The notes beneath the pieces were generated by a model. That model did no database searches. It was not told the DNA's origin and saw only the letters and a list, made by a program, of their open reading frames with translations. Position numbers and translations under genes: made by a program. DNA of 59,897 bases, the filler included, from Dugesia japonica (Eukaryota): NCBI GenBank assembly GCA_001938525.1. It is 5 parts of 5 records of this genome, joined end to end, with 100 filler letters (N's around TTAATTAATTAA, not from the genome) between each part and the next. Parts side by side here need not be neighbours in the genome. Positions count along the whole stretch, not along the records: positions 29,869 to 47,266 come from MQRL01594727.1; 4 more parts are not named here. One strand, 5' to 3'. Shown here one piece after another: positions 1,097 through 53,808 of this stretch. How positions within the stretch are numbered: the stretch's first letter is position 1; every line of letters begins with the position of its first letter.

Positions 1097-2131
1097 ATTA
1101 TTAAAATAATCTTAGCTTTTTGCTCGTACATGATTCCTTCTTGTAACTGTCATAAGTATTGTAACTCACTTTTTAATAGAAAGTGTCAGTCAACTCAAAT
1201 GAAGAGAAATTTTGTTCTTCATTATTTTAGTTCGATTTTTTGCCGGAACTGGATGATTTTAGGTTTGGCTACCGCTCGAGACTATGTTTATATCTTTTAA
1301 ATTCATAATTTGGAATAATTTTCATTGATCATTTATATACATTTCATCTACATTTAACTAAAGATTGAGCTCGCTGGACCAATTTGTGATGTCACGTTAT
1401 AAATTTTAAGGTTAAAAGAGATAAGAAGCATTAGTATATAAACATATACAGTTTTCGTTTTATTCAGAATTTATTTTAAATATAAGATTAAAGTGTGAAT
1501 TTACGTTGTTCACTTTAATCCGATTTGTTCAAATGATAAAGACATCTCAGAAATCATTTTTAATCTGGATTTAGTTTACTTGTGAATATTCTTAAAATGA
1601 TTTATAAGTTCCAAATAGTAAGCTATGATTTAGTTGACAAAGTATTAATGTTCAAATGCAAAAATGTCTGTTCACAAATATAATTTGATACGAAATTGAA
1701 ATTCAATGGCCGCATAAAATTCTTTGTTCACCCCTGGTGTAAAACTTGTGTCATATTTTCAATACATGTAAAAAGATCTGTATAGATTTTTAATACTTCT
1801 TGTATCTATAGGTATATCTAAATTGATCAAATTTATTCGGTTATCCTAATATCATTTTTTTATTAGTTTGTTAAATTTTCATATTTTTTACAAATTTATA
1901 TTATTAAAATTTTATAAAAGTCAAACAATTAGTTATGTTTTAAACTATTATTTAAAAATATATTAAAACAGTTTTCAAATAAGTTTTATTCACTTTTTTC
2001 GAAATACTGAAAACAATCAGCAAAAAAATTGTGTGTTTTAATAATGCTCATTTAAAATAAATTGTAAGTTTATTTTTGACTTTAAAAATTTACTTCATTT
2101 AGAGTGAAATTGTTTTTTTAAAGAAATTGTA

Positions 2132-4117
2132 ATGGGCGTAAAAGGACTAATGTCATATATGTTGAATGATGGCTCTTCATTTAAGCCACATAAATTAAGA
2201 CAAAGTAAAGTCATTATTGATGGCAATAATTTTTTACATTCTATTCATCACGCACATAACGTATGTTGGAAATTTGGTGGTGAATATGATTCATACGATA
2301 AAGCATTAGTAAAATTTTTCCAAAGATTACGGCTTTGTGAAATAGAGCCTATTATAGTTTTTGATGGTTGCTATGATGCTGAGGTAAATAAAATTTGTAT
2401 TATTTCTAATTAAATTTTGATAATATTATGGAAAAACAAATTTGGCTGTATTGGTTTTGTTAATTTGATAAAAATTTAAAATACTATGAAAATAATGATT
2501 TTTCTTTAGGGCAGTAAAATAAAAACAACCATATCTAGATTTAAAGATCGAATTAAAACGTGTTCACGTATGAACAAAAGTTATTTATCAGAAGGCTATC
2601 TTTTACCGATGTTGACTCTTCAAACTATGATTTCTGTTTTACAACGATTGGATATTGATTTTATAACTTGTCACGAAGAAGCTGACAAAGAAGCGGCAGC
2701 ATTGGCTAACTATTTTCACTGTCCAGTAATTAGCAATGATTCTGATTTTTTTATATTTCCTTTAAATTTTGGTTTTATACCTGTTGGAAGTTTGAATTTC
2801 ATTCCTGTCGAGGAACCTTGTCAATGCTGTTTGTCAAGTTCTACCCATTTCTATATGTCATGTGCCATATTTAATCAATCAAATTTATGTTTAAAATCAA
2901 GAAATAATCTACCAATTAAGAGGAATTTGATGCCGTTATTCTCCACATTAATGGGAAATGATTTTTTGTCAATTGATTTTTTTGAGATAATTTTTCTACA
3001 AAATAATTCAAAAAATAACAGTAAAAAACACAGTAAAACATCGTCGAAATTAACCCAATTATTGAATTGGGTGCACGAATTCGATAATATTGACAGCGCT
3101 ATTGATAAAGTGATTTCATTGGTTAAAGAAAAGGAACGAGTTCGAGTTGAACACACGATAAGATCATCTATAGAACAATATAATTTGAATAAATCCAGTT
3201 TAATAGAACCCTTAAAATCAAATTTACCGGTTTTCTTAAAAACCAACGATTTATTCAATAATTTACCGGAATTTATTGATCTTCTTTTACGGAAATCGAT
3301 TTTATCACCGATTTTAGTTAATAGTCTCGTGTCCGGTAGAGTTTTTCTTTCGTCAAATGTCGAATCGATAAAGCTTGATTCGATTCATTGCATATCCGAT
3401 AAAATTAGAAATCGATTTTATAATACTCTTTTCCGATTGGCTAATAAATCGTCGGGGTTCATTATTGAATACACGAGAAAGGAAGCCCATCTCTACAAAA
3501 CCCGAATTGATATCGATGAAATTTCAATTGGAAATTCAAATAATAATATTTGTGATTTTCCATTGATTATCGATAGAATTTCTTTTATTAAAATAATGAT
3601 TTTGTATTGGGTGGAGGAGAAATCTAAGAGAATTCAGAATTTAGATTTTCATTCGGTTTTAGCAACGATCGCTTCAGTTTTTATTCAGTTTTCATGGAAA
3701 ATCGAATTATTGAAATCGGAATCATTCAACAAAACCAAATACGAAAATCGAATTTATAAATTCTTTACAGATCCAATCGTAACGAATGTAAATAAATTCC
3801 AAATCGATTTGATTCACAATTTCAATGAATTACAATCGATCTATTTCTCTTTGGTTCAATTGTTGTGTTTGGATTCTGATTTCAATATCGATTCGATTCC
3901 GTCGCCACAAAGTTTGTTTTGCGGAAAATTGAACTACAATCTTTCGGTTGATTTGAAGAAACGAAAAACAAACTGTTGGGATTATATTTGGCAGTTATTT
4001 GAATCAGTTCCTTGTAAAGAATTTCAGATTCAATTTTCAGATATTATTTGTTCTGTTGGGAAAATTATACCGAATTTCGATTTATTTATTACAAGCTTTA
4101 AAAATTGCAAAATTTGA
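2132..4117 (+). CDS. ASTE1: Protein asteroid homolog 1 (XPG/FEN1-like PIN nuclease), 2 exons: 2132-2383 and 2510-4117, ~619 aa
   Basis: N-terminal motifs MGVKGL, IIDGNNF, FGGEYD and IVFDG; I-region EEADKEAAALANYFHCPVISNDSDFFIF. A phase-0 GT..AG intron (2384-2509: gag|gtaaat ... tttctttag|ggc) joins the two ORFs in frame. Confidence 0.88.
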
Positions 4118-14990: not shown

Positions 14991-15470
14991 AGCTGCGTTT
15001 TTTTATCAATGATTTTTGTGATTGATTTTTTTTCAAAGATTTTTAGGATCAAAAATTTTTTGATTGGATCTAATTTTTTTTATCTGATTAGTTTTTTTGA
15101 TCCTGGAGGTGTGTGTGTATTTTTAAATTTAAAATTTTCTGTGTTTGGGTTGTTAAGGTGCTTTTAAAAAGTAGGTCAAGTTGTGTTTGTGTGTGTGTGT
15201 AAAATACTGGAAAAACGAGGAGGAGTAGCTAGAGATCGTGGAGATAATTTTTTTGGGATTTTCATGATTTATTTGTTGTTGGACAAAAATTTGGTCTATA
15301 TATTGTCTAAAGAACTTATGAGTTTGGACGGATGGTTTTCACTACAAGGGTAGTCATTTTTGTTTTTTTGATGTATTTGTGGTTATTTTTTCAGTATTTT
15401 GATCAGGGAAGTGTTGTTTTGTAAGATTTTCGACTGGGGAAGAGAGGAGTCTTGATATTTTTAAAAAAGT

Positions 15471-15615
15471 TTTTGGCGGGAAATTTAGAATTTTNTTTTG
15501 GCGGGAAATTCAAAAAAATTATTTTTGGCGGGAAATTAAAAAAAAATACTTTTGCGGGAAATTGAAAAAAATTATTTTGGTAGGAAATTTAAAAACAATA
15601 TTTTTGTTAGAAATT
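15471..15615 (+). repeat. ~26-bp tandem repeat carrying E2F-type TTTTGGCGGGAAA motifs (about 6 copies, decaying)
   Basis: Copies begin near 15471, 15496, 15523, 15550, 15575 and 15601. Confidence 0.8.
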
Positions 15616-15699
15616 TTTCATTGTAATGGGGGGGAATCTTTTATTACAATTAAATTAAATAAAATTTAATTTAATTTAATTTAAATAAATTACTTTGTT

Positions 15700-18150
15700 A
15701 TGTAAGAGATGGGGTAGTCTTGATATTTTGGATGCATAGTCTCTATATTTTGCATAAGATGTGCAATCTTGATATTTTTTAGATATTAATACAAGATATT
15801 GGGCATTAATGATATTTTTACGATATTTATGCATGTTATGGGCAGTCTTGATAATTTTTAAGATATTTATGCATGGTTTGGGCCGATTTGATCATTTTTA
15901 AGATATTATTACAAGATATTTTTGCATGTTATGGGCAGTCTTGATATTTATTAAGTCAATTATACAAGATATTAGGGATTCTTGATATTTTTTACGATAT
16001 TTATTCATGCTATGGGCAATCTTGATATTTTTTAAGATATTATTTCAACATATTTATTCATGTAATGGGCAATCTTGATATATTTAAGATATTTATGCAT
16101 GGTATGGGCAGACTTGATATTTTTTAAGATATTATTACAAGATATTTTTTAATATATTTAGATATTTGATATATGATATTTTTTAAGATATTATTACAAG
16201 ACATTTATGCATGTTATGAGCCGTCTTGATATCTTTTGAGATATTATTACAAGATATTAATACAAGATATTAGAGTCTTGGTATTTTGCATGGTATCAGC
16301 AGTCTTGAAATTTTTGAATCATGAGCCAATATATTTAACTTGGGAGGCTCTATATTTAGCAAGGTATGAGACAGACTAAAAATCATAGGCATGTAATTTT
16401 CAGTGTATGTGTGTTGCTTCTGAGATGTATACCGTTTGTATTTAAAATATCAATAAAACTTCCCAGACATGTGATTTTTAACGTATGTGTGTTGCATCTG
16501 AATTGTAACTGAGTTGCATTTTAAAAATCAAATGGTGGCTATATTGAATTTTAAAAATTCTCAGACTTGTGATTTTCAGTGTATGTGTGTTGCAGCTGTA
16601 ATGCTTCTGAGTTACATTTATGAAAGTATATCTATCAAAAAACTTGAAAGAGGGGAATCTATGTGATTTTGCATAATAAAATATAACTTTTATTAAAATA
16701 TTCAAATAAAAAAGTTCAAAGAGTGGAGTCTTTGTAAAATTTATATGTTAAAATATATCTTTCAGAAAACCTTCAAGAGGGGAGTATTTGAGATATTTAC
16801 ATTTTAAAATGTATCTATCAAAAATAATCCAAGAGGGGAGTCTTTGTGATATTTACATACTAAAATATAACTTTTATAAATTTTCAAAAATAAAAAACCT
16901 CAAAGAGGGAAGTCTTTGCGATATTTGCATGATAAAATATATGTCTCGATAAGCTTTATAGAGGGGAGTCTTTGTGATATTTAGATGAATAAATATTTAA
17001 ATTAAAACCTTTCATTACAAAATGATAAAAAACATAGAATTGTATTCAAAAACATAATACTAGTGCTAATTTCCTTTAGAAAATATCAATAGTAATGTCA
17101 TTTTTAATATAGAATCTCATTACAGTTGCAGTGTTTAATAGAAACTCTCATTACTGATGCAATTTTAAATAAAAAATCTCATTACCGATGCAATTTTCCA
17201 TTATAAAAAACATATTGACAATAAAATTTTCCAAAATAAAACAAATTGGTGATGCATTGTTCTTGTAAAAACATATTGGTGATAAAATTTGTCCATAAAA
17301 AACATATTACTAGTGACAATATTTCTATAAAAAAAACATATTGGTGATGTAGTCTTTCAATAATAAACAAATATTTACTGACAATTTTCCATACAAAATG
17401 ATTAAAACATAGAAACTTTCCATATAGCTAATAAGCCTATATAAAAATGACTTAAATAAGTAAATATTTTGATAACTAAATAGGGTTCATGAGTGTATAA
17501 AGTTTAAGAGTGATGAGGGTTAAAGAAGAAAGATGGTTTATGAGTGTATGTTTTGCATTGATACCTTGTATTATAGGGTTTATGAGTATATTATTTACAT
17601 GTAACCGTGTATAATAAGGATTATGAGTGTATTATTTACTAAGTAACCTTGTATTATTTACATATCAACCATGAAATTTAAGATTTATGAGTGTAATATT
17701 TACACAACAACCATGTATTATTTACATAGCAACCATGTATTATAAGGATGTTGTGTGTATTAATACATAGTAACTCTGTATTATAAGGTTTATGAGAATA
17801 TTGTTTGCATAGCTACCTTGTATTATTTACATGACAACCGTGTATTATAGGGTTTACGCGTATATATTTTAGAAAACAACCGTTTAATGATTTTTGTATG
17901 TATTATTTACATATTAACCATGTGTTATATGTTTTATGAGTCTGCTTTTTTTACTTAGTAACCTTGTATTACTGTATAACCTTAGTAACTTTGTTTTATT
18001 TATATAACAACCATGAAATATAACGTTTATGAAATATAAGGCTTATGAGGTAATTATTTACATATCAAACGTCGAATATAAGGTTTTACATAGTAACCAT
18101 GTAATATATGGTTTATGAGTGTAATATGTGTATATTTACATTGTATTATT
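15700..18150. repeat. Series of distinct minisatellite arrays
   Basis: gggcagtcttgatatt/acaagatatt units (~15700-16330), agaggggagtctttgtgatatt ~60-bp units (~16640-16990), catattggtgatg ~30-bp units (~17050-17420), and tttatgagtgt/aaccatgtatt units (~17480-18150). Confidence 0.85.
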
Positions 18151-22329: not shown

Positions 22330-23290
22330 AAGATTAATTAGACTTTTGTGAAATGGATTAAAATTTTAAAGCGTTGACTTAGAAATTTCAATGTAATGAA
22401 CTATATTTTTAGTGTAACAGATTATAAGTTTAATTTTTTGGTTAGAATTATTATTTTTGAATAAGAAATTTTATTTAACAAACTACAAATTATGTGCTGA
22501 CTTTGACATTTTATGTGTTGGCTTAGAGGTTTTATGAGATTTTTAAGAATTTTGTATGATTAAAGTAATTTTAGTGCATGGATTATAATATCTGTGTTGA
22601 CTTAGAATTTTGTGTAATGGATTACAGTTTTAGTGTGATGGATTATCATTTTTATGTGTTGATTTAGAGCTTTACTTGTTGAGTGTTAATTTTTATGGGT
22701 TAGATTAGACTTTTGCGAGATGGATTATAATTTTAAAGCGTTGATTTAGAAATCTCAACGTGATGAACTTTAATTTAGTGTGACAGATTATAAGTTTAAC
22801 TTGTTGGTTGTGTGTTGACTTATAAACTTTATGTGTTGGTTTAGACCTTTTGTGAATTATCTAAGAATTTTGGGTGATAAAATATTATTTTAGTGTATTG
22901 ATTACAATTTTAAAGTGTTGACTTAAAACTTTCAATGTGATTAATTATAGTTTAGTGTGAAAGATTATTAATTTATCTAGTTGGTTATAATTCTTTGTAT
23001 TGACTTAGAAATTTTATTGACTTCCATGTAATTTGTGATAATTTTTAATTACTTCTAATTTTAGTAGAATGGATTATAATTTTAGTTTAAAAATTATAGT
23101 TTTAAAGCGATGATTTAGAAATTGTAATGTGATGAACTACATTTGTACTGTGATGGATTATAATTCTTATTGGATGAAAGTTAATTTTTGTGTGATGGAA
23201 TATACTTTTATGTGTGAATTAAAAGTTTTTTGTACAAAAATATTCATTTTTCTGACTTCCATGTAATTTATGAAAATGTTTAATGACTTT
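22330..23290. repeat. Degenerate tandem repeat array
   Basis: Recurrent ttgacttagaa..gtgatggattata..ttt units. Confidence 0.7.
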
Positions 23291-25699: not shown

Positions 25700-27840
25700 T
25701 TCTACTGCCTGATGATTGTTTTTGCTGTGGAGAAACAAACCATAAAAGTATAAACTGTCCTTTAAAGAAAGATGTTTAATATGAGGTAAAGAAATCAAAG
25801 CTTTTAGAAATTTTGTATTATTACAAAGAAAACAATAATAAAAGAATATTATATATAGCAGAACAAGAGAAGAAAGAAATTTTAAATGAATGTGACTCCT
25901 TAATTAATTTTAAATATGATGTATTCAATGCCTTAAAAAATAACGAAAAAATGTCCAGTTACCCGCTGTGTCCATGTTGTCAATGAGGTTGGATTAAAGA
26001 ATTTTAAATAGTAAAATTGAGATATTGATNNNNNNNNNNNNNTTAAACTGATGTATCAAAAACGTGATGGTAGAAATTGGAAAAGTTTAAATTGTAATGG
26101 AATTAGTGTAGAGATTTTATGGAATTCTGGAGCGTCTGTCTCAGTGATAAATGAAGAAATTCGGAAAAAGATTGGTTCACAAAAAATTCAATTCTCAAAT
26201 ATAATGCTGAGAAAAGTGAAAAATGCATAGAAACAGCCAGAATTAAATTATTTTTTGGAATAAAAAGCATATATAGAGAGAAATTACAATTATTAAAGAC
26301 AATTGTCTAAATTTTGTTGGTGATATTGATATAATGAAAGCTTTTGGAATTGGAATAAAAGAAATCAATTTCATAGATTCAAAATATGTTATATGCAAAA
26401 ATAAGAAACATAATAATAAAAGCATTAATAGACTCAAGCTAAATGCCAGCAATAGAATAATTTAATTACTTGATAAATATGACCACATATCTATGAATTC
26501 AAAATTTGATGTAGAGTTAACAAATGACAATGCGTAACATAAAAACTAAAGGAGAACCCGTAGTAATAAATTGAAGAAGACAACCAAAGCATTTAGAAGG
26601 CAAGATAGACAAATTAATTCAAAATCTATTATCAGCAAATGTTATAATACCTTGTCAAAGTCCATGGAATTCTCCATTAGTGATTGTTCCAAAAAAATGG
26701 TTCTCTCAGAATGTGCTTGATTTTGGGAAATTGAATTTGCTAACTGAAAAATATTCATTTCCTGTTCCAGATATAAATATGTTATTGGATAGACTAAATG
26801 ACTATGTTTTCTCATCAATTGATCAAGGACAGGCGTATTATCAAATTGAATTAACTGAGAAGTCAAAATTAAAAACAGCTTTCAGCATAGAAATGAAACA
26901 ATTTGGTTTCAATCGCATGCCATTCGGATTATGCACTACTCCTGCAAAATTTCAAGAATTAATGCATACAATTTTCAACAAGATGTTATTTACTAGAGTA
27001 CTCGTTTATCTTGATGACATTTTAAGTTTTGGTCAGTCACCAGAAATTCATGATAAACATTTACAAAATGTGTTGAAACTAATTGAAAAATCTGGTATCA
27101 AAACTAATCCTGAAAAATTTATATTTACTGTATTAAAACTCAAATTCCTTGGTCATACAATCATTTCTAAAGGTGTTGAAACCAATGATAACATTATTAA
27201 TAAAGTAAAAGAGGCTTTTTTCCAAAATGTGCAACAAAAATTTGCACCTTCTTAGGATTGACAAATTACTGCTGTAATTAAAGATTATTAATTACTTAAT
27301 TGATATTAATAATATATTAATTACTTAATTAATTAATTAATTGCTGTTATTAAAGATTACGCAACAATTACCACTTCATTATATGTAGCAATAACTGGAT
27401 GAAAATAAATCGTCAAGTAGATTGAAGAATGTGACAGCAGTTTTAAACTACTAAAAGAAAAATTATGTAGTTCTCCAATCTTGGCATTTCTGAATCCTCA
27501 AAGCAAAATGATATTATATACATACTTAAGTTTCTATCCAATTGGTGGTGTTTTGAGTCAATTGTCGAGAGATGGTGTGGAAACTGTTATTGCTTATGCA
27601 TCTCGTAATTTGAATGATCATGTAAAGGGTTATTGTGTGGCGTTACACGAATTTATGATTTATTTTCAGCATTATCTTTACGGAAAACGTTCATAGCCAG
27701 AACTGACCATAAGGTATTAGTGTTCATGAACAAGTAAACCAATTGATTTACAGTTCCAGACGTAGATTACAAACCAAGAAGAATTTGATTTTGATCTTCA
27801 ATTTTGTAAAGGCAATGCTGATGGATTATCAAGAATAGGA
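25700..27840 (+). mobile_element. Degenerate Ty3/Gypsy retrotransposon (gag knuckle, protease, RT, RNase H)
   Basis: CFCCGETNHKSINC; ILWNSGASVSVI (protease DSGA-like); SPWNSPLVIVPKK, FSSID, KTAF, RMPFGL, YLDDIL; RNase H GGVLSQ..VIAYASR..RTDH. Frameshifted. Confidence 0.9.
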
Positions 27841-29868: not shown

Positions 29869-30105
29869 AATATAATCTTACCTGATTCCAAATAAATAAA
29901 TTCTACAATATTAAATAAAATTGAATGCAGTATTTCCCAAATATTATTACTAATTAAATAAATTACTTTCATTGAGAATTGTTTGGAAATGTTTTACTAA
30001 AATATTGAATAAATTTTATATAATTAATTTTGTTATAATATTGACGTGAAAAATTTATTTGAAAATGAATTCCAATAACGAAAACAAAATAAAAAAATAT
30101 TATTA

Positions 30106-30545
30106 CACAGTGTATTCAAAACGTTCTGGGACTGATTTTGCAGAAATCAAAATTCATGTTCTAAAACATATTTCACAAAGCAAATGACATAAAATTTGCT
30201 TTTTGCCTGTTTATAAAACAAATTTTATTTGTTATGTTCAACATACATCCCTTTCATCTCTATACATGTCTTACATAGTTCATACTATCGCTGGAAGGTG
30301 ACTTAATAGTTACCTTTTAGAAATAATTTCAGAATGTTTTTTATATTTTTAGAAATTGTGTGAATTTTATCCAAACGCTCTACTATAAGGGCTGTTTTGA
30401 GTTTCGGAAAGAGAAAGCAGTCTGTTGGTAAATAGGGTGGGTGTTTGATCACGGAGACAATTTTCTTTGCTAAAGTCGCGAAATGCTAAGTAATGAATGT
30501 GTAGATGCATTGCAGAGCAATATGAACAGTTGAGGGATATGAACG
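30106..30545 (-). mobile_element. Mariner transposon 3' part (transposase C-terminus plus TIR), interrupted at 30546
   Basis: VIKHPPYLPTDCFLFPKLK resembles HPPYSPDLAPxDxxLF; TA|CACAGTGTATTCAAAACGTTCTGGGACTG terminus. A probable N-terminal HTH part resumes after 33616 (RRISIKLLSEDVYLS). Confidence 0.75.
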
Positions 30546-31398
30546 CACTGGAAAACCTAATCCAGGATTAGTGATATATATGTAACTTAATCTTTGTGTT
30601 TTTAGTTAGGATACATATTTGCCCGTAAATTATATAATTATGTAAATTTCATTGTCGAGATTTTAAGAAATCGGATTAGGTTTTTTAGTATTTTTCCTGT
30701 TTTTAGTTGGGAATAATTTTTCAAAGCTTTTTAGTTGTAAAAAAAGTTTTATTGTATTTTTTATTGTTATTCTGTTGAACAGCCTAATTTGTTTAAATAT
30801 TTAATTTTTGAATGAAATTTTTATAGGAATCTGGGTGAACAACCCCTATTTTTGAAAATTATTTTTTATTCTCATACTTTAAAGACTTTTATACCAAACT
30901 GCTTAGACTTTTACGGGGATCATTTTAGGTTTTTACTATATTTTAGAATTTGTTGAAAAACTTTTTTGTCATCTTTACATGAAATAACCATATCTATTAG
31001 AAAGAGAATTACTTGCTGATAATGATGGTTACAATTTAAAATGGCCTGGTGGAAATAAATGAAGTAGAGAAAAGAAGTAGATAGAGGATGTTTAGGTCAT
31101 TACGAATAACATGGTTTAAAATATCAAAACCGTATACATAAAGCAAGCACTTTATTTGAAAGTTTCCCTCTATGAATATAAAATTAATAAATGTATAAGT
31201 ATACAACTTAATAAAAGGATAGTTAATTTTGTAACTTACATTTCTTTGATAAAAACCTGATGCGGACTATATGATTAATTTTGTTGTAGGTTTGAAAATA
31301 CTAAACAATACAATTAATTTTAATTAACAAATAACAAATCATTATCTTAATAACAGTTGGACTGAATGTGAGTCGTCTTTATTACATTGTGGTATTTT

Positions 31399-32580
31399 CT
31401 AATGCCCATATGGTATAAATAGATTTGTATCTACCCATATTTGTTTATCGTTTATGTAAGTAAAAGCTACTTTATGATTATAAATACTAAACAGTTGATG
31501 GTATTTACTACAAATTCTAAATTGCTTAACTGAAACCTTTTAATTATTTTTATTAAATAATATCAGTTATGACTGATGGTTTATTTTGATAATTTTTAAA
31601 GTTTTTCACTTAACATTCATAGAAACCTTTTTCACTAAGGAGATTGTAACATTTCGGCCTCAAATAAAAATCCCATTATATATCTTCTTATATTATATCT
31701 TATAATTTTAAACTCATCTTTAAATGTTTCTGCAACAAAATTCAAGTCATTATTGAAAAGTGGATTGTTTTACTATAATATGTGTCTAACAACTTATCAC
31801 GTATCATTAAACCTAACAATTTATCTAACCTAGTGTTTTTAACTTGTAAACGGAAGATGTATGTGTCCCTAGCAACAATACTTATAGAGCAATTTTCCTT
31901 CTTAAAATATTTCTCTAATTCAATATATTGAAGCTGGTACATACTAAGCTTAGACACATCTAGTAAAGATTGTCAAATATGACTCAGACGATACAAACAA
32001 ATAACTTCCTTATTAAACTGATAAGAAATCAACTTATTATCGATTTTTAAAGTTTTTCTAAAGTTCAGTTTGGAAGTATTCAGCTTTTTAGCAGAGTTAC
32101 AGAGATGAAGATTTATTATCTTCTTAAGAGTTCCAACCATTTTACTATTAAAACTATTTTTAACCAACTCATTTTTACTTTCTGACCTTAATGCAGTGTT
32201 GTCATCTACATAATCCTTATATATAATATTGACAACATTTTAAAGCTCTATGAAGTTTAGTCACTTCAACTCTTATTTATAAATACAATTGAAGTAACTT
32301 CCAATATATTACATAGTGTTTTTTAGGGTAAAGAGTTATTAATAATTTTTTGATTTTAGTACCTGGTATAAATAAATCTAAAAGCTCCAATCGTAAAGAA
32401 TTTTTCAGGAATTCAAGTTAGTATGAAACCACTCAAAGTTCTTATAAGGAATCGTTTGGCGTAAAACCCAACCCTATGAATTATTAATATTTATATATAA
32501 AAGCTCGGTATATAATCTGCAACTACTTAGTGCTTATTTACAAAAGTAAAAACTCATCTGATACCACCTACAATCACTAC
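31399..32580 (-). pseudogene. Protein-primed family-B DNA polymerase (Polinton/Maverick/adintovirus type), polymerase domain remnant
   Basis: LLYININNS*GWVLRQTIPYKNFEW (motif A, YLDANNLYGWAM), KNSFNSKM (motif B, KLxxNSxYGK), LLDVSKLSMY, ARDTYIF (motif C, YTDTDS), LRPKCY, NDKQ..IPYGH (DDKR..PYGH), in the expected order. Catalytic residues are degenerate. Confidence 0.85.
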
Positions 32581-32699
32581 CTTTTATTAGTTACGTGACG
32601 ACTAGCCTGTTTAATTGTATGTGGATCTAATGAAGCTTTAGAAATTTAAGACAATTTTATAAATAATCAACTTTTTTATTGTTTATAGACTGCAATAAA

Positions 32700-32836
32700 C
32701 AATAAAATATATTTTGTGTATTGAATATTACAATACCACCACTATGTTTTGATATTTCTGTGTATAAATTATTAAAGTCTTTTTCCTTATTGGCTTAATA
32801 CAAATCGTTAACAACAATTACATCACCAGATTTTAA
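32700..32836 (-). pseudogene. Polinton-type FtsK/HerA (A32-like) packaging ATPase fragment
   Basis: DVIVVNDLY*..NLYTEISKHSGGIVIFNTQNIF resembles Walker B hhhhDDL, LFTkgsHH and sVifitQnlF. Confidence 0.65.
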
Positions 32837-34486
32837 TCTCTCCTTTTAATAGTAATAAAATCCATTAATAATTGTCATTTTTAAATCACAAAATGATGAT
32901 TGATTTGAATTAAAATAATTAAATACTTTTCTATATAACTTTTTATGTATAAGGTTTTAAAATTTAAAGCCATGTAATTCGTAATGACCTAAGCATTTTC
33001 TATCTAATAATGTTTTGATGTTCAAAATTCAGTTACTTCTCATGTTTTCCAAAAAGGAATAATTCTTCAGAAGAGACTCCCAAATTAAGTACTAAGTTAT
33101 AACCATTATTATCATCAAATAACTCTCTATCTAATAAATATGGTTATTTCATGTAAAAATGACAAAAACGTTTTTCGCAAAATTCTATGTAACATATTGG
33201 AAAAACCAAAAATAATCCATGTGTAAGTCTAAGAGGTTTGGAATAAAAGTGTTTGAAATACTTGAATAAAAATAATTTTCAAAAATAGGGGTGGTTCCTA
33301 TAAAAATTTCATTCAAAAATCAAATATTTAAACAAATTGCACTGTTTACCTGAGTTTCAGTAAAAAAATCAAATAAAAAGGTTTTACTAACTAAACCATA
33401 GTAAAAATATTAAAACACTTAATCTGATTACGGAAAGTCTCAACGATGATATTAATCCTGATTATATAATTTGTGTGCAAAATATTTTTCCTAACTAAAT
33501 ACATAGAAGAAATATTTAATCCCATTACCTAATATGATGTCATTTTTAAATTCCCAACTAGAAGCATAGGGATTAACTTCAATTACACCACTAATCCTGG
33601 GGGGTATTTCAGTACGTCATGTTTGATAGCAAAAACGCATCCATCGCTAAGATAGACATCTTCTGACAACAATTTTATGCTAATTCTGCGTGTTTCAGCT
33701 AGTATAGTGCTGAAATCTACATTTTTTTTGAATTTTTCTCTATATTTTAAATTATTGATTAATAAATTAAAGATTTCGTATTATTTATTGGAAATATTTA
33801 ACAAACATTGTAGAATGTATGAAATTTTCCAATTTGAAATTACATAATCACATCACATTTATCTCAAATCTTCTAAACTAAACCGAGATTTAAATAGAAA
33901 AATTAGATTCCAACTATCAAATTGTTTGAGGTTTCTAATGGAAATATTGGTGAGATTAATATGGCTTAATTATTCTAATATGAGAAAAGATTTGATGATT
34001 AAATTTACAAAGAATTGCAAAGTATTCAAAGAGGATAATATATTGTTCACATCTGTAAAATCTATTAGCATTCATTCAAGGTTTAATTGATGCCCCGAAA
34101 AGTTATGCCCTAATAAATATCTCGATTAACATAAAGTAAAAAATATATCTTTTAGTTTAAGTTTTTACTCTTTTTGAAAAATACAAAATACAGGTTGATC
34201 GCATATGCAATCTAAGGTCACAGACATAGAGAGAAACGTTCAAGTAAAAAAAAGTTAGATAATTGCCATCGTAAACTTATTGAATTTTAACGTTATGCAT
34301 TAGAATTTATTATTAATACTTTTCATAATTTTTGTATGTAAATTAATCTATGGAATAAATAACTCTAAAAGTCATAGAATAATTAACGAATAATTTGTGT
34401 AAAATAACTTTATTAAAATATAAAATAAATTATTTAATATAAAAGCTTAGATCAAAATTTAGGTTTTAATTATTGATATTAGATAA

Positions 34487-35989: not shown

Positions 35990-36405
35990 AAGTATACTAT
36001 CTTTCGTGAACTTTCTCAGTTATTTCATAAGAGTATTAAAATCTATCTTGGCTTTTATTTCATGTTTCTACTTCGATGAGGAAAAATTGACATACTTTGA
36101 ATTCTCTAATAGTAGTCACGTATCAAATGTTTTTTTAGTTCTATCTGAAACTTCTGACTCATAATATTTTTCTTTGATAATTTTCTGTCCAAAAACCTTC
36201 ATCGTAAATTTTATTTTCCGGTAAAAAATCTGCAAAATATGTGGTCTTTCTCTCTTTAAGTGTTGCATTAATAAAATCTCAAATTATCCCAAATTGTCTT
36301 TCAATTTGCCGTTTACACCGTGATTATAAGGACTCAAAAATCAAAGTTTAATTTTTAGCTTCTATTCTTTCATAATTTTTGATTCAAAGACTTTTTCACA
36401 GTTGT
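35990..36405 (-). mobile_element. Gypsy integrase C-terminal remnant related to the 41-44 kb element
   Basis: Nucleotide similarity to 41075-41480 (ttagttctatctgaaac.tctgactcata; aagtgttgcattaat). Confidence 0.7.
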
Positions 36406-37192
36406 CAAAATTGACTGGAAATGGTCAGAAATGTCCTCAGAATGAACGAATCAGAGTTAATTTGGTAAGCAATTTATTGTCTTGGTTGAATTCGGTTTGT
36501 TATGGTGAAGCTCGAGTAATTTATGTTGATTTTTGGTTGAATTTAGTTAACATTTTACTCGGTATAATACAATTTTGGTCGCGTTTAGTTAAATCTTTGC
36601 TCATAATGGCCGATACTGGTTGGTTTTGGTCGAAAGTTAGCTCACAAATATTAAATTTTGTTTAATATGGTTGATTTTGGTACTTAATGCGGGTAAATTC
36701 TCTCACGAAAAATTAGAGTATCCTACGATAAATATTAAAATTGTACGTTTTCATATGAAAAAATGTATCTCAAAATTGATAATGGACTCATCTATTCAAT
36801 AAAGAACTCTACTTTGAGTAACAATAATAGTTAAACATAATATATACAAAAATTTTACGTGGCTATGTAAGTGACTTATTGCTTGCTGCTGAACAACAAA
36901 TTGTACTAAAGTTAAAAACTTATTATTAACACATCAGCCTAAGAAAAACTATGTAATACATTGGAGGTTACTTCAGTTGTATTTACAAATATTGGTTGAA
37001 GTGACTAAAATCTATAGAGCTGTAAAATGTAATCAATATTATATATTTAAGGCATTAAGGTCAAAAGGTATAAGGCTAATGATCTGTCAGTCTAATAATC
37101 AAAGTAAACTTAACTTTAACAAGTTTTATGTCTGTGGTTACCACTAAAAAACTAAAAATCCCCCTTTACTAGATAGTCAAGATCCGCCCCTG

Positions 37193-37335: not shown

Positions 37336-38582
37336 TAATACTATTGTATTAATACCATTATCAATAAAATTGAACATACCAAAAAAATTAGTTTGAGTGT
37401 TCATTTAAGGTAGCAACTCATCTTGAGTAAGTGAATATTAATAAAGAAAACGAAAATGGAAAAACGTATATTATATAATATATTATTAGTACAAATATAA
37501 AATTAGAAATACTTTTAATTAATTTGTTCTTAATAATTTCTTAACCAATACATAAAAATTAGAATTAATGACATAAAATTTTATTCCATCCACGGATTGG
37601 TTAGTTTGAGTAATTTTTGGACGATTTAAGTCAATTATTTACTCACAAGAGTTAATTTTAAGTGAATTTGAGCGCTAATTTCATCGGGCGTGTAAGTTTG
37701 GGGTGAATCTTTACGGAAATCCATGTGAAAAGTCGAAATTTTTTAAATCTTCAAAAATAAGTTTTCAAAAGATAATTTAAAATCTGGAAAATCTGGTTGA
37801 AAAACTCATATTGCTTAAAAAATATGAAAATTTTAAAATTTTTTAAATGAATTTTTTATAGGAATCCGAGACATTTAAAATTTCGAAACTTTTTTGTCGA
37901 GATTTTTACATCACCCAATTCAAAATGACCTCAGAATCATTTCTAGCTAAAAATAATTTATTCGAAAAGTATATTGATCTCAAATTTAATTATGCACTAG
38001 TCTATTCTATAGAGAATTTTGAGCTGATCATGACTGATCAAGTTAAAAATAGTCAAATATTGTTTGAAACTGAGAAAATAATTTTTGAAAGTCTTTCTTC
38101 TTTAAACGTATTAAAACATACATTACTCGATAGAGAATTTTTCACTAATCAAGAAAAACATGGTCAAAATTCCAAGGATGTTTAATCATCACAAATAACA
38201 AATGATTTTTTATAATTTTCATCCACAATTAAATAGATAATTTTACGCTGATCAAGAATATATACGATAAGATTGGTCAAATGAAATTACTTTGAAAGAA
38301 GTTTAAATTTTGAAATTCTCAATAATTGGTTAAAAAAAAGTATCTCAAATTTTATTATAAACCAGTCTATTCGATATAGACATTTACACTAATTCCAAAT
38401 ATGTAAACTTAAGATCGTCAAATCTTATAGATAAAAAGTTATATTTAAAGAACCAGTACTTTATTGTGGAGTCTGACCCGAGGAATATATAATATAGTTT
38501 AATAATTTACTCGATTCGGTCTATTTTTAATTGAATTTAATATGCATTTGGAAGAATATTTTCTCTTAATTGTTCCTTAATC

Positions 38583-39863
38583 ACACCTCACTAGTGCTCA
38601 GTCATCAATACTCTGCTAGCAGTGTACTGGTCTTCAGTTATCAATGGTTTTCCTCCTGTTTACTAGTTTTCACTTTTTACTAGAATCTTTTCACGTTTCA
38701 CTGGACTTTTCTATTACTTACTGGTTTTCTTCCGCTATTTACAAGTCTTCACTAATGGTAAATGTACTGTTTAATTAGTATTATTTATTTAATCAGTTTT
38801 ATAATTTTTACTTTTAATTTTGAAATTAAATTACATTTCGTGTATTTTTATTTCATTTTCTATTTTTATCGTAAAAATACAATTAAAGTTTAATTTATAA
38901 TATGAATTTTTTATTTAAATTGATTCATTAAAATAATTTCTAAACATTTATTGAACATAATGAATATAATTGCTGAATAAATTAAGTATGACGAGTTGAT
39001 TAATTTTCTATGTGCAAATTGATTAAAAATTTGTGAGTAAATGTAATTATGTCTTGAATAAATGTTTAAAAGTAATTTTAAAAATAAATTTAGAATTTTT
39101 ATGAATAAATTAAATAGCAAGTTTAAAATATAATAACAAGTTTATTAAGTTTTGAAAATTTTGAAATAATTTGTGACTAGTTATTTAAAATATTTCAAAT
39201 AATATTGATGGAATAAATTAAGTATGATGGATTTAATTATTTTCAAATAAATATAAGTAAAAGTATATACAACTTGAATTTTAAGTGTAAAATATAATAA
39301 CTTTAGACTTCTTTAAATAAAAAGTGAAAATTAAGGCTTTTTCATAAATATATGCTTATTTTTGGTGCTACATGATAAAATTTAAGCTTTTACAATTTAG
39401 AATTTATAATAAAGAGGAAAAACCATTACAATTTATAGTTTAATATTCAGTGAATACTAAAAAAATAATGAAAATTAACGAATAAGGATAACATACGAAT
39501 AAAAATTGTAATATCCTCATTGAAAATAAATTATCCTTATCCGAATTTAAATTCACAATATTATAAATTAAACTTTAATTATATTTTTCGATAAAAATAG
39601 AAAATGAAATAAAATTACACGAAATCTAATTTAACTTCAAAATTAAAATTAGAAAATATAAAACAGATTAAATAAATAATATTAATTAAACAGTACATTT
39701 ACCACTAGTGAAGAGTGAAGACTTGTAAATAGCGGAAGAAAACCAGTAAGTAAAAGAAAAGTTCAGTGAAGAGTAAAAACTTGTGAACAGTGGGAAAACC
39801 ATTGATCACTGAAGACCAGTGCACTGCTAGCAGATTTTTTATGTCTGCGGACTAGTAAGGTGT
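38583..39863. mobile_element. Non-autonomous foldback/MITE with ~320-bp TIRs
   Basis: 38583-38910 is inverted at 39549-39863 (tctgctagcagtg.actggtcttcagt / actgaagaccagtgcactgctagcaga). Confidence 0.85.
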
Positions 39864-40419
39864 CTGAAAAGAACAATGCAGAGAAAGTATTCTTCAAAAT
39901 TTGTGAATATGTTTTGAAAAGCGAGTTGAAAATTTTGTGTGGTTGGCGATCATTTTTCATAAAACCTTTTTATCTAAAAATATATGAATTTTAGATGAAA
40001 ATTAAAATACCGTTTCGTATTTGTTTTTAACTTTTAAAGGAAAATTTAAATAACTTATGAGTAATTGTTTTAAAATTTTAAATGACGATTTATTATTAAA
40101 GCAAAATTTTTTTGTGTAAAACTTTAATATTTGAAAAGTGATCGCCAATTAAAACATGGAATTTTAGTTTGTTTGAATAAACAAATAGTGTTGGATATAG
40201 TTTTGTTTTGTGAATACATCTTTTAATGGAAATGAGTTTTGACATTAATGACCGTTAAATATTAAAAAATTGTCGGCCGAAGGTAGATGTTTCAGTGCGC
40301 TATTATATACCTACTTACCATTTGTAAATGTTGCTCTTTCGTCCATTAACAAGTTGGAAGATAGGTTGAAGAATGTTGAGTATTTTTAAAAGTCGGGATA
40401 GGGTCCAAGATAAATTTAC

Positions 40420-41066: not shown

Positions 41067-43948
41067 TCAATAAGTCAATCTTTCGTAAATTTTCTGAATT
41101 ATTTGATAGGGTCCTTCAAATCTGTCTAGACTTTTATTTCTTGTTTCTAGCTTTATGAGTACCAGATCGCCCACTTTGAATTCTCTTTTAGTAATCACGC
41201 CTGAAGTGTTTTCTTTAGTTCTATCTGAAACGTCTGACTCATACCACTTTCCAAATAAGATCTCAGCAGGGCTCTGCTTTGTTGCGTTCATTGTAAATTA
41301 TATTTCTGGTAAAAGATCAGCCCAATATGTTGACCTTCTTTGCTAAAGTGTTGCATTAATCAAATCTGGAATTTTCCTGAACTGGTTTTCAATTTGTTCG
41401 TTTGCATTATGATGATATGGACTCAAAAAGCAAAGTTTTATATTTAGCTTCTTTGCAAACTCTGCCATAACTCTGGATTCAAACACTTTCCCACAATTTG
41501 ATCTTATCTTAGACATCCAAATCTCAATATCCAATTTTCAGAAACAGCTTTTCGTATTGTTTCCTGGTCTTGTCTAGGCTATACTATAAGAACCATATAT
41601 TTACTGTATTAGTCGATTATTCCAAGAATGTATTTTTTTCGTCCACTTGTTTCCCGCATTGGCCCACATATATCTGTGAATATCACTTCAAACAAATTGG
41701 TAGCTTTTAATCTCTTTGTCTTTTCTCTAGTTGCTACTGTCACGTATTTGGTCTTCTGAAAAATTCTACAACTACGAACTATCTTATGTATTTGGCTCAA
41801 CAAATTCTTCGCAATATATTTGTTTCTCATATATTCGTACAACCTTTTAACTCCTGCATGACATAAAAAGTTTTGTATTTCTTGTATTGTCTTATGTATT
41901 TTGTTATCAGGAACTTCCATTTTTTTGCTTAAATTTTTTTCCTCAGAAATGTTTAATTGTTCTTTTTTTGCCTTTTCAATTATTTTCAGTATTTTTGTTT
42001 TAATCTTCCCTATCTTGGCATCTTCATGTGACATTTGACATTTGACACCCTTTTACCAAACACAAACCAAGGAAAGTTTCATTTCCGGATAATATTATTC
42101 TTAAAAAGGTTTTGGATAGCTTCTTCAATTTTAGATTATAAGTTCATTTGTTAGATGTTTGCGTCCTACATCCCAATTATCTGCCATAAAAGCATCTTCT
42201 TTACTTTCAATTATTTTCAATAACCGTTGATCCTCTTTAATCTTCAAAATATTTAAAGCTCTTGTTAATCGCTCTCCTTTTTTAATTTGTCTCCCAAATT
42301 TTGTTTCAATATTACAAATGTAATTTTCAACTTTTTCATCCGTTTTGGTGTTAATCTTTTGCATAAGCTGATATCCAAAAATCTTCTGCATATTTATTCC
42401 TCCTATCGGATCTGTTGTAATCTCTTTGCAAACTTCATCAATTATCACTCCAATTTTAAATTTTTAACAACTTTAAGTGCACTATTATTTGCACTACGCA
42501 ATCTTTCATCACTCATTTCTAAATGCGTTTCTCGAAATGTATCAAAACAACTCAAACTCATCACTTTAATTCTAGCCCCTGTATGTAATAAACATTCTAC
42601 TTTATTTCCTTGAATTGATACTGTAACACTTGGTCTGCCTTGCAATTTATGGTACGAAATATGTGATTTCTGTTCTGCTTCAACTGTTCCAACCCATTCT
42701 ACTTTTCTCTCATCCGCAAAATTGTCCCTCTTTAAAAATCAGTGTACTTTGTCTGTAACTTTCCTTATATCATCCCACTTTTCGACTCCTTGACTCACTT
42801 CATTTAACAATGGATGGCTTCAACCAACTCCTCTACTGATGGAGCCCTGCCTTTTGGGTACTGCTTTTCAGAATCACTTTTAATAAATTTCCTCATATTC
42901 ATCGTTTGTATTAAAATCTTCATCTTCAATCGTGTGTACTCGATTATATTGGATTCTTGATCTTTCTGCAGTCATAAATTTCTCACTTCTTTTCATTTTT
43001 AAATTTGTGTAGCACTCTTCTGCCCTATGTTCACCATTACCACATCGTTTACACCTCACTTCTTGACATAATCTTCTAATATGGCAAACCTTTCCACAGT
43101 CAAAACATTTTTTTGGATTTTTATTTGGACAATCTTGACTTATATGTCCTGTTTTATGACTAATCGCGCACGCTACCACTGTTTTTGTTGGACAATTCGC
43201 TTTAGTATGACCGATCTTATGATACATTTGATATTTGGTTAACATTCGATTTGGTTTAACATTCGATATTTGGTTTTTCCTTCCTTTGATCCACATGTCT
43301 ATTCACGCTATGTATTACCGGTTTCTAATAATTTTGATTTTTAACTCTCTCGTAACTTCTAACTACATTGACTTGATCTATGTTTTTTCTCTACTCGATC
43401 TACTAACCTCATTGTTTCTTCAATTTTTTCTATATTCTCTCGTTTTCGCAAAGTTAGTTCTTCTTAAACTTTTTTGTTATCTGAACAACAAAACTAGCAT
43501 CTTTGCTACCATTTTTGCCTCAGTAAAATCTTTATTTGTAAATAATCCTTTTACTTAATCTTTTACATTTTTTAAAATAAACTTAAATCTCTTCATTTTC
43601 ACGCCTGTAGTTATTCAAATTTTGAAAATCTTTGATAACATCTTTTTCTTTCTCAAATGCCATACGTAAACGAGCCTGAAAACTTTTTTCAACGTCTTTA
43701 CATAATCTTGCAGCAAATCTTTATCTAACAAACAAGAGACTAATCTCTCATGTTGTTTCACATGGGTAATTTTTTAGCTTCAAAAAAAATTCAAACCGCT
43801 CGATAAATTTCTCAATATCATCTCCTCTGCAGAACACTTTTGGCGATAATCTCTCTGTAATAGAATCGGTATTTACCCCTGCAACGATGTTAAGTAAATT
43901 TTCAATTGGTAATTGGTTGTTCAAATCAGAACTAATATTTTTAGACAT
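41067..43948 (-). mobile_element. Degenerate Ty3/Gypsy element: gag (multiple CCHC knuckles), protease and integrase, with RT/RNase H largely deleted
   Basis: CFDCGKVCHIRRLC, CKRCGNGEHRAEEC and two degenerate knuckles; CLLHTGA protease; integrase CHAG..C, DICGP, IID, SPYHHNANEQIE, GDLVL, FEGPY. Confidence 0.9.
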
Positions 43949-51600: not shown

Positions 51601-52419
51601 ATGTCTTCAATATTTTTGAAAGGATTTCGTATATCTAAAAACAGGTCAGAATCCGTTGTAGAAATGTCATATACTATATTTAATCTTTTATTTTTAGCTT
51701 TACAAGACTCAAGCTAAAGCTGAAATGCTATTCGGGAAAGAAATTCTAATCTACTGAACTCATATAAGAGTAGATCTACAAATTAGATTGAAAAGCGCTC
51801 AGAACTTTGGCTTTTGAACGTCAAGACACCTTATGATAATGTTGGTAAAATATTACCAAATATCAATATCTCAAAGATAAACTCCAAGTTACTTATCAAA
51901 TTGGAAAATTGTTCAGGATTCTTTTATAGTAGGATGTCTTGGTTCTTAAAGCGTTCAAAATGATACTTAGTTGAAAGTTCCAAAAACAAAAATTAATAAT
52001 CTGAAAAAAGAGTTGATTGCTTTTAATATCAAATGGAGCAATTTAACATATTATTTCCACAATTAATTGAATTTTGTGGATAGAGTTCCTAGTTACAATG
52101 ATCCTGTAGAAGTCAATCAGTGACAAATAGAAGAAAGAAGCAATTATATTGATCCAAACTAGAAACCAGAGAAAGATGATGAAAATTCGATCGATTGAAT
52201 ATTGATGAGATCAGAGATCAATAATGATAGTGAAACAAGCTTTTGATGACCTCAAATCAACAAACGAGAAGAAATCAATATTTGAAGTTTGTGAGATATT
52301 TACACTTTATGGTCAGTTAGTGTCTGATTGTGTTTTATTGGGTATCCTGAGACCCTAAAGTCGAAGGCAAAAAAAGTGCATTGGTACATGTGATTATTTG
52401 TGATATTAAATATATCTTT

Positions 52420-52960
52420 ATTACAAAGCAAGAGTGTAGTATGTGATCTTTCGGTGCCAACCAATGATGACCTCGTTTGTTATTGTTAAAGTAAATCCAT
52501 TTTATCACAAGTCAACAAGTTATTCGAAAATTGCGAGCTTTTATGACGCATCAAATAAGACGAACAAATTGTAAATTTTCAGAGCTTGTTTTCATTTGAC
52601 AAATTAAGTGAAACCCACTTGTAAAGCTTGCATGACATTTCCAATTGCTTTTAATATCCCGTCACGTTTCATTGCCAACATTGATGATTTCTGACAATTC
52701 TTTAAATGATAAATTTGAATTGTTTTCAATAGATTTTTAAAATCATTGTTACAGACCACCAAGGTCTTCCGGAGCGTTCTTCATCTTCCACTGACTAGTT
52801 GGCTTCAGAAAATTAAGAAGAACCATTTTTAGGCAGTTTGACCCAAACGCTAAATGGATTCTACTGTAACGCTTGATCTCATTTTATACTTATAAAACAA
52901 TTTTGGGTTTTTCTGATACTAATAATTCAATTCTTCACATCTGAACATAATTGTAGTAAA
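52420..52960 (-). pseudogene. Mariner transposase remnant (N-terminal half)
   Basis: AFGSNCL, VEDEERSGRP, KWVSLNLS (WVPHEL-like), then TCD/KWIYFNN..W. Frameshifted. Confidence 0.75.
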
Positions 52961-53808
52961 TAGAAGAATGACCCACGTGATCTGAAGTGGTTTTCAATTT
53001 TGATAATAACATAAATACAAAATAAAGACGACTTCCACGGATAAACAACATAACAATAAATTTATTTCTACTTTCCAATACAAACAAACAATTTTTTTTT
53101 GAAAGATCTATCAATGGATATAATTTTAATAAAAAAACCCAATTAAAACAAAAAAACTGACTATTTTAATTACGAAATTTAAATAAATTCTTTTCTTCTA
53201 ATTAATCATTAATTTAATTTAAAAAAAAACAAACAAGTAAAAAAATTATCACGACATGTTTGCTTTCCATTAAAGAAAACTGAAAACTTTTAAATTGTAA
53301 TTTATTTTTAAAAAATTTACAAATTGTTTCTTTCAGTCTAATATCTAATTCTACTTATTCAAATAAAATAATCTACTTACTATTCTAATTATATGGAATT
53401 GTATCAAACCAAGATTACATAGTAATTTTCAAATCGGTTTTATAGATTTATCGATTAATCAATAACAATTATTCTGAGGCAAATCAACACAAACTAGTTT
53501 AGTAGGAAAATTTGTTTAAATCTAACTAATTTAATGTCAAATACTAATTTTATTATCAGTGGATATTTAAATATGAAAGATTAGTTTAATGAACTGAAAG
53601 AAAATAAATTAAAAGATTGTTAATTGAAAACACAAATAACATTAATAATTAATTTTCTTTTACACTAACTATTGAGAATATTGTCAACAGTTGATGTTTT
53701 TCAAAATTTAAAATATATATATTTCAAATAACTCGTTTAAAACAAAAAATTATTTTTTATTTCAAAAAATTATTTAACAAGCAAAGATCAAAATTGCTGT
53801 TCTTTTAT

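Follow-up and report, generated by a model that had tools for sequence, protein, structure and literature searches.

Polintons (Mavericks) are described as having arms of 100-1500 bp and target duplications of 5-8 bp (10.1101/2023.08.22.554363), and the vertebrate ones as ending in (AGT)2, (AG)3 or (AC)3A and as carrying polymerase and ATPase in one module on a common strand; decay affects 96% of the vertebrate loci, and novel end motifs have come to light (PMC8097293). The transposons of the CACTA group (CACTA/EnSpm-Mirage-Chapaev-Transib, CMCT) have in common CA..TG ends and duplications of 2-5 bp (PMC12730594), and CACTA elements have subterminal repeats (PMC8978399); a general classification of transposons is given in PMC5718144. 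A precedent for the fusion of a transposon with a virus is Teratorn, in which piggyBac is joined to an alloherpesvirus (PMC10175614, PMC6431247), and in Polinton-like viruses the protein-primed DNA polymerase B (pPolB) is strongly paired with DDE transposases (10.64898/2026.10.13.758929, PMC10675990). For the genomes of Dugesia, a marked expansion of repeats labelled Maverick has been reported (10.64898/2025.12.11.693146). Here we describe an element of 3.07 kb from Dugesia japonica (assembly GCA_001938525.1, record MQRL01594727.1), which lies in an AT-rich setting at positions 30546-33614 of the window, that is, of the whole stretch of 59,897 nucleotides analysed, and in which long inverted arms enclose two gene fragments. 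The element is genuine, no artefact, and its anatomy was given correctly in the initial annotation of the window. It is likely a chimera of a Polinton and an unrelated cut-and-paste transposon, which one old copy cannot prove.

With Polintons, the element shares a PolB of Polinton type (its homolog has an endonuclease VII insert) and an A32-type ATPase on the same strand, as well as long terminal inverted repeats and the decayed state in which such elements are mostly met. It differs from them in its size, 3 kb as against 13-25 kb, in the lack of an integrase, a protease and a capsid gene, and in its CACTG/CAGTA ends and apparent 2-3 bp duplication, where Polintons have AG, AGT or AC ends and duplications of 5-8 bp. 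The CA..TG-type ends, CACT(A/G), and the apparent 2-3 bp duplication resemble instead those of CACTA/EnSpm and other CMCT elements as their published accounts give them (PMC12730594, PMC8978399), but there is no transposase, one terminal base is off, subterminal repeats are at shuffle level, and the entire 600-bp arm is an inverted repeat. The plant Pack-CACTA and Pack-terminal-inverted-repeat (Pack-TIR) elements are likewise described as non-autonomous, with CACTA-type ends and foreign gene fragments (PMC6379663, PMC8903248), whereas our element is found in an animal and its cargo would come from an endogenous DNA virus, not from host genes. As in Teratorn, the ends that enclose the DNA-virus genes appear to be those of an unrelated cut-and-paste transposon; Teratorn, however, is given as 41-182 kb long, intact and equipped with its own transposase, while the present element is a 3-kb pseudogene without a transposase or a shown autonomous parent. 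In the titles, abstract openings and passages covered, with Repbase, Dfam and supplements outside that scope, we found no published description of a CACTA-ended element with Polinton genes.

Arms, termini and flanking duplication

The initial annotation had reported inverted repeats of about 600 bp ending in CACTG/CAGTA, and these are found exactly where it placed them. The left arm starts with CACTG and runs on the plus strand from 30546 to about 31150 (~610 bp, the inner end being approximate), while the right arm, assigned to the minus strand, spans 32927-33614 (~690 bp) and ends in CAGTA, or TACTG when read on the minus strand. Local alignment of the first 750 against the last 800 bases of the element scored 528, as compared with at most 108 in 30 shuffles, and an alignment anchored at these ends gave 458 identities in 562 gap-free columns, a Kimura two-parameter (K2P) distance of 0.21, with extra blocks of ~63 and ~40 bases in the right arm relative to the left. 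Both arms terminate in register at CACTG/TACTG, and the sequences flanking them are unrelated. The left terminus is an exact match to CACT(A/G) and the right terminus matches it in four of five bases, in what is a single decayed copy; a repeat motif of AG, AGT or AC, taken in the forms known from vertebrate Polintons, is absent at both ends. An exact 25-base pattern from the arm had no match in viral or prokaryotic collections. A derivation of the arms from ATPase coding sequence was ruled out, as the ATPase profile scores at background in the arms (at most 4.2 bits).

Directly outside the arms, CG is present on both flanks as had been noted (30544-30545 and 33615-33616), forming a putative 2-bp target duplication. 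In a boundary test that covered duplications of 2-9 bases, with each end shifted by up to 6 bases, CG was one of nine two-base matches and the one located at the aligned ends. A perfect 3-bp duplication, ACG, with its left copy at 30543-30545, can also be read if the element is one base shorter and its last base was lost. The perfect flank duplications at the ends are of 2 bp (CG) or 3 bp (ACG) only, and within the shifts allowed there is no duplication of 6-9 bp with one mismatch or none. Since every boundary reading yields the identical empty site, a mariner reference could not separate duplications of 2, 3 and 5 bp.

These ends fit the CACTA group, with its CA..TG termini and 2-5 bp duplications, better than they fit Polintons, with their AG, AGT or AC termini and 5-8 bp duplications. 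We give an even chance to the interpretation that the element is an old, broken, non-autonomous transposon of the CACTA group carrying Polinton debris. The CACTA-like assignment made initially is kept in part: the ends and the short flank match speak for it, and the four-of-five right end, the chance level of a 2-bp match and the missing transposase speak against it. Several observations weigh on this second side. The right terminal base is A and not G, and the assignment to CACTA rests on five terminal bases, read at the ends of only one copy that is ~20% decayed. A 2-bp match is expected here by chance with a probability of 0.097, and a 5-bp flank pair that matches in four of five positions is also possible as a decayed duplication, although this pair, with its one mismatch, breaks the symmetry of the ends. 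Because CG is palindromic, the inverted symmetry extends three bases outward, and ACGCACTG may be the real terminus. Counts of subterminal repeats did not exceed those in shuffles (6 pairs as against a mean of 2.7 and a maximum of 10, and 3 as against 3.3); motifs chosen by hand were partly enriched, a choice that is circular. Arms of 600-700 bp do not separate the families, given the 100-1500 bp published as typical for Polintons. Lastly, a CACTA-group transposase was not seen in the element or in the region 48.5-59.9 kb of the window, which the six-frame Pfam scan covered.

A serious rival is that the element is a Polinton of the ordinary kind with internal deletions, since such a derivative would likewise show long arms enclosing two Polinton genes of one strand. 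Here the arms would be the terminal repeats of the Polinton itself, a retroviral-type integrase would have inserted it, and the CACTA look would result from an unusual end motif and 20% decay of both termini and duplication. The arm length lies within the published Polinton range, the presence of two core Polinton genes on one strand is what two deletions of one element would leave, and the degraded loci and new end motifs known from vertebrates (PMC8097293) provide room for such a copy; in addition, other copies, met in sequencing contigs, proceed with different sequence from 32903 and 32796 onward, and the 5-bp flank pair could be read as the expected duplication. However, nothing of 6-9 bp is duplicated even with a mismatch allowed, and a 5- or 6-bp reading requires a right arm without several of its terminal bases, the very bases that match the left end in four of five positions as an inverted repeat, while a published Polinton motif is at neither end. 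The tests for a Polinton end and duplication failed, and we regard this explanation as possible but rather unlikely. Membership is nevertheless certain for neither family, Polinton or CACTA.

The cargo between the arms

The larger of the two fragments, at 31402-32568 on the minus strand, was identified by frameshift-aware alignment to a homolog of 1178 aa, P0001, which contains the Pfam domains DNA_pol_B_2 (E 4e-28) and Endonuclease_7. This homolog was itself found by way of a second pPolB scrap in the window, at 36903-37057 (E 3e-9; the one homolog among 20 candidates). Residues 745-1174 of P0001 are colinear with 32568-31402, with E 6e-40 for the best piece and a frameshift-aware score of 555 as compared with 33-39 in five shuffles; 176 of 380 residues are identical, with 8 stops and 6 frameshifts in between. 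Residues 1-740 of P0001 have no match in the element, and a word-based homolog search with the main polymerase piece gave no match. The alignment confirms the polymerase half of a protein-primed PolB that had been placed between the arms, here the C-terminal half of a PolB of Polinton type in the state of a pseudogene. Between the polymerase end and the left arm lies a non-coding tail (31151-31401), which is bridged by contig X1 record 2. The viral contigs L002 and L007, Polinton-like and 14-15 kb long, were too distant to be informative, with polymerases 24-27% identical to P0001; L002 carries pPolB, an integrase, a protease and an A32 ATPase by Pfam, and L007 has genes that by eye are similar to those of L002, plus four collagen-like proteins.

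The second fragment, at 32660-32887 on the same strand, corresponds approximately to residues 65-140 of 220 of an A32-type packaging ATPase, the middle third, with the Walker A region and the C-terminal part absent. A HMMER search of 1.84 billion proteins with this piece gave eight matches, three of them long and multi-stretch and the other five resembling ATPases (142-220 aa, E 7e-9 to 2e-4), of which two (P0002, P0003) are above the Pox_A32 cut-off, two are below it and one is without a Pfam match; the best homolog shares 50% identity across 60 residues. Over 32887-32660, a profile built from these relatives scores 61 bits, and at most 7.2 elsewhere in the window, a result that is partly circular, as the relatives were found with the window piece itself. 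They were recovered by the HMMER search only: five direct tests for an ATPase were negative, among them the word-based homolog search, PHROGs and comparisons with two distant viral ATPases, in one of which the piece ranked 1640 of 5976 windows. Judged by its homologs, the fragment is confirmed as derived from an A32-type ATPase, in agreement with the A32-like fragment first proposed. For both genes the support comes by way of the homologs, which match DNA_pol_B_2 and Pox_A32, whereas the window's own frames have no relevant Pfam match.

The two pieces had been called fused. They are indeed adjacent on one strand, 92 bp apart, but they do not form a single fused frame, as the spacer between them (32569-32659, bridged by contigs of X2, X3 and X6) matches neither protein; a deletion joint may lie here. 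The cargo has the appearance of a stretch of Polinton from which two or more deletions have taken parts. No transposase, integrase or capsid had been recognised at first, and none was found by Pfam in the frames of the element; retroviral-type integrase, protease and capsid had no Pfam match in its six frames, and less than 400 bp of the interior is otherwise unaccounted for. Any deleted copy would be expected to lack these three. Two Pfam searches with single frames of the cargo and the flanks (15 and 19 frames) turned up no relevant family; PHROGs and PDB gave no match, and viral and prokaryotic collections scanned by motif and by pattern yielded either nothing or no confirmed relative, and phages yielded none. 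A match to a phage tape-measure protein, L001, was dismissed as chance. With both genes partial and the polymerase broken by stops and frameshifts, the copy is a pseudogene, as had been said: the cargo is a passenger that encodes nothing functional, and the copy itself is dead.

Other copies, related sequences and the host repeat

Of 12 sequencing runs listed, 6 (from 3 studies) contain the stretch, and 4 of these runs, from 3 samples, were compared at the level of contigs only; the assembly may derive from one of the runs. Three of the five junctions are bridged by contigs with 0-1 differences, namely the left end (by X1 record 1 and X2 record 10, both identical), the arm-tail-polymerase junction and the ATPase-polymerase junction. 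Among the 32 of 21,088 pieces listed, none bridges 32789-32928, from the ATPase to the right arm, or 33500-33660, at the right end, and among the 15 of 139 joints listed there is no empty-site joint; from so small a share of the pieces nothing can be concluded. Contigs that differ from this copy number 75-105 per run at 30908 in the arm, 55-74 at 32763 in the ATPase and 39-55 at 32299 in the polymerase, so that the arms, like the cargo, are members of families with many copies. The summed depth in arm and cargo bins is 6,000-118,000, as compared with 3-8 for identical single pieces, and does not measure copy number; outside the element, one bin is deeper still (304,000-625,000). The outermost bins, on the other hand, are shallow (74-199) and do not show that the highly abundant relatives have the same termini, which counts against the CACTA interpretation.

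In all four runs, one contig links 31312, in the polymerase tail, to 32927, at the inner end of the arm, on opposite strands. We read this joint as a second copy in which the polymerase tail abuts an arm. Such a copy argues against a one-off nested insertion, and the possibility that other arm pairs never carry this cargo becomes less credible with one further arm-cargo joint in four of four runs. The joint itself has 31 letters on its short side with 80% likeness, and it comes from the same 15 of 139 joints, points that also count against our interpretation. The accident at one locus that the joint speaks against would have brought Polinton debris into a cargo-free inverted-repeat element, or two repeat insertions to face each other across the debris. 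The window is a nest of old repeats, and the indels between the arms are large; several contigs in all four runs, moreover, link 33093 to 32927 with 2-8 letters between, and these are possibly cargo-free arm-to-arm copies. Against an accident stand the exact terminal register of the arms and their one shared duplication, the tail-arm joint of the second copy at a different breakpoint, and the inner borders, where by eye no Polinton end or 6-bp duplication is evident. That the arms are independent insertions likewise seems improbable, as they face each other in exact register and have no separate duplications. We consider a one-locus accident the least likely of the readings, and distinctly improbable.

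Related sequences are also present elsewhere in the window. The second, independent pPolB scrap (36903-37057, plus strand) has 83% DNA identity to 32211-32362 and 69% protein identity to P0001. A distant relative of the arm sequence, without a partner arm or a recognisable terminus, lies at 37560-38450 on the plus strand; it scores 137 against the left arm (shuffle maximum 99), and its inner end scores 66 against the inner end of the right arm (shuffles 43). A 14-base motif occurs in it at spacings of 121 and 244 bases and in the right arm at 127, the motif being drawn from these sites. The stretch before the second scrap resembles 37560-38450 (71 as against 50), while its direct scores against the element arms, 27 and 30, are at shuffle level. 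A gypsy-like fragment at 35999-36403, with 72% likeness to 41078-41498, stops 10 bases short of GACTGGAAA, after which come this arm-like stretch and, 46 bp behind it in the same orientation, the scrap. The region 36403-37060 hints at a second, older arm-plus-polymerase element, a weak and post hoc suggestion.

These relatives bear on a further explanation, in which the element is a deletion derivative of an autonomous hybrid, a virus of Polinton type in which a CACTA-group transposase and ends replaced the retroviral-type integrase, much as Teratorn joins piggyBac to a herpesvirus. The evidence of the ends and of the duplication is the same as for a CACTA transposon carrying debris. In favour of a hybrid are also the summed depths of the same order for the arms and both cargo genes, the second scrap behind its arm-like stretch, the precedent for fusion (PMC10175614, PMC6431247) and the reported pairing of pPolB with DDE transposases (10.64898/2026.10.13.758929). 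But neither a transposase nor a capsid nor a longer copy came to light, the link between the element arms and the arm-like stretch next to the scrap runs only via a third sequence, and depth proves little when one bin outside the element is deeper still. Furthermore, priming by a protein as a rule requires short repeats at the termini, AG/AGT for example. An autonomous hybrid as the parent appears unlikely.

The element is set in what had been described as a mariner remnant split by the insertion. To its left lies a decayed mariner-like transposase 3' region (30100-30545, start approximate, minus strand), and to its right the likely continuation of the same remnant (33617-33750, end approximate, minus strand). 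The left part contains, near 30450-30400 on the minus strand, the motif HPPY...FLFPKLK, which we take to be that of a mariner transposase and which no tool confirmed; Pfam, PDB and in-window searches gave no match. Summed contig depth is 40-92 in the left flank (3-8 for identical single pieces) and 41-117 at 33651 in the right, as compared with 14-18 beyond 33750, and similar depth of both flanks is as expected for one split repeat. The splitting of a repeat is therefore consistent with depth, while its assignment to mariner is putative and depends on this motif.

Other features of the window are noted here for completeness. An element of 1.36 kb at 38546-39906 has inverted arms of ~360 bp (82% alike) and CA..TG ends, and is flanked on both sides by AATATG, an apparent 6-bp duplication. 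A host gene of two exons at 2108-4117 has an XPG_I_2 domain (E 2e-5) and is presumably an asteroid homolog. Decayed gypsy-like pieces of reverse transcriptase, RNase H, integrase and gag were recognised from motifs at 26575-27696 and 41609-43302, and what, from motifs in a six-frame read, is presumably another decayed mariner-like transposase lies at ~52000-53200 on the minus strand, with no Pfam match. Long, strand-skewed, degenerate tandem arrays with units of ~26-184 bases occupy 15470-18150 and 22337-23217 and could be the ends of other large elements.

A possible pathway and its meaning

If the element is a CACTA-group transposon carrying Polinton debris, a pathway of four steps can be envisioned. 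Polinton DNA would have come between two arms, most simply either by insertion of a Polinton into a short inverted-repeat element or by a copying event in gap repair. Deletions would then have taken away the ends of the Polinton, the first part of the ATPase and all that lay between mid-ATPase and mid-polymerase. A CACTA-group transposase encoded elsewhere could have recognised the CACTG ends in trans, resulting in the insertion into the mariner remnant with the duplication of 2 or 3 bases. The decay that followed would amount to ~10% per arm if the arms were initially identical.

What the element means depends on which origin is right. From an ordinary deleted Polinton, no more than a novel end motif would be gained. 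If the ends do belong to the CACTA group, an unrelated cut-and-paste system is spreading virus genes in an animal, and capture of the Pack type would extend to endogenous DNA viruses; repeat annotation would also be misled, as tools that work by homology would label such copies 'Maverick'. Should an autonomous parent exist, it would be a second independent fusion of transposon and virus after Teratorn, and would imply a changed integration enzyme in animal Polintons. There is a small chance that the element is the fossil of an undescribed and once very abundant hybrid, a Polinton-type virus that integrated via CACTA-group ends with 2-3 bp duplications instead of by a retroviral-type integrase. 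In that event, part of the 'Maverick' expansions reported from the genomes of some animals would be the cut-and-paste amplification of such chimeras.

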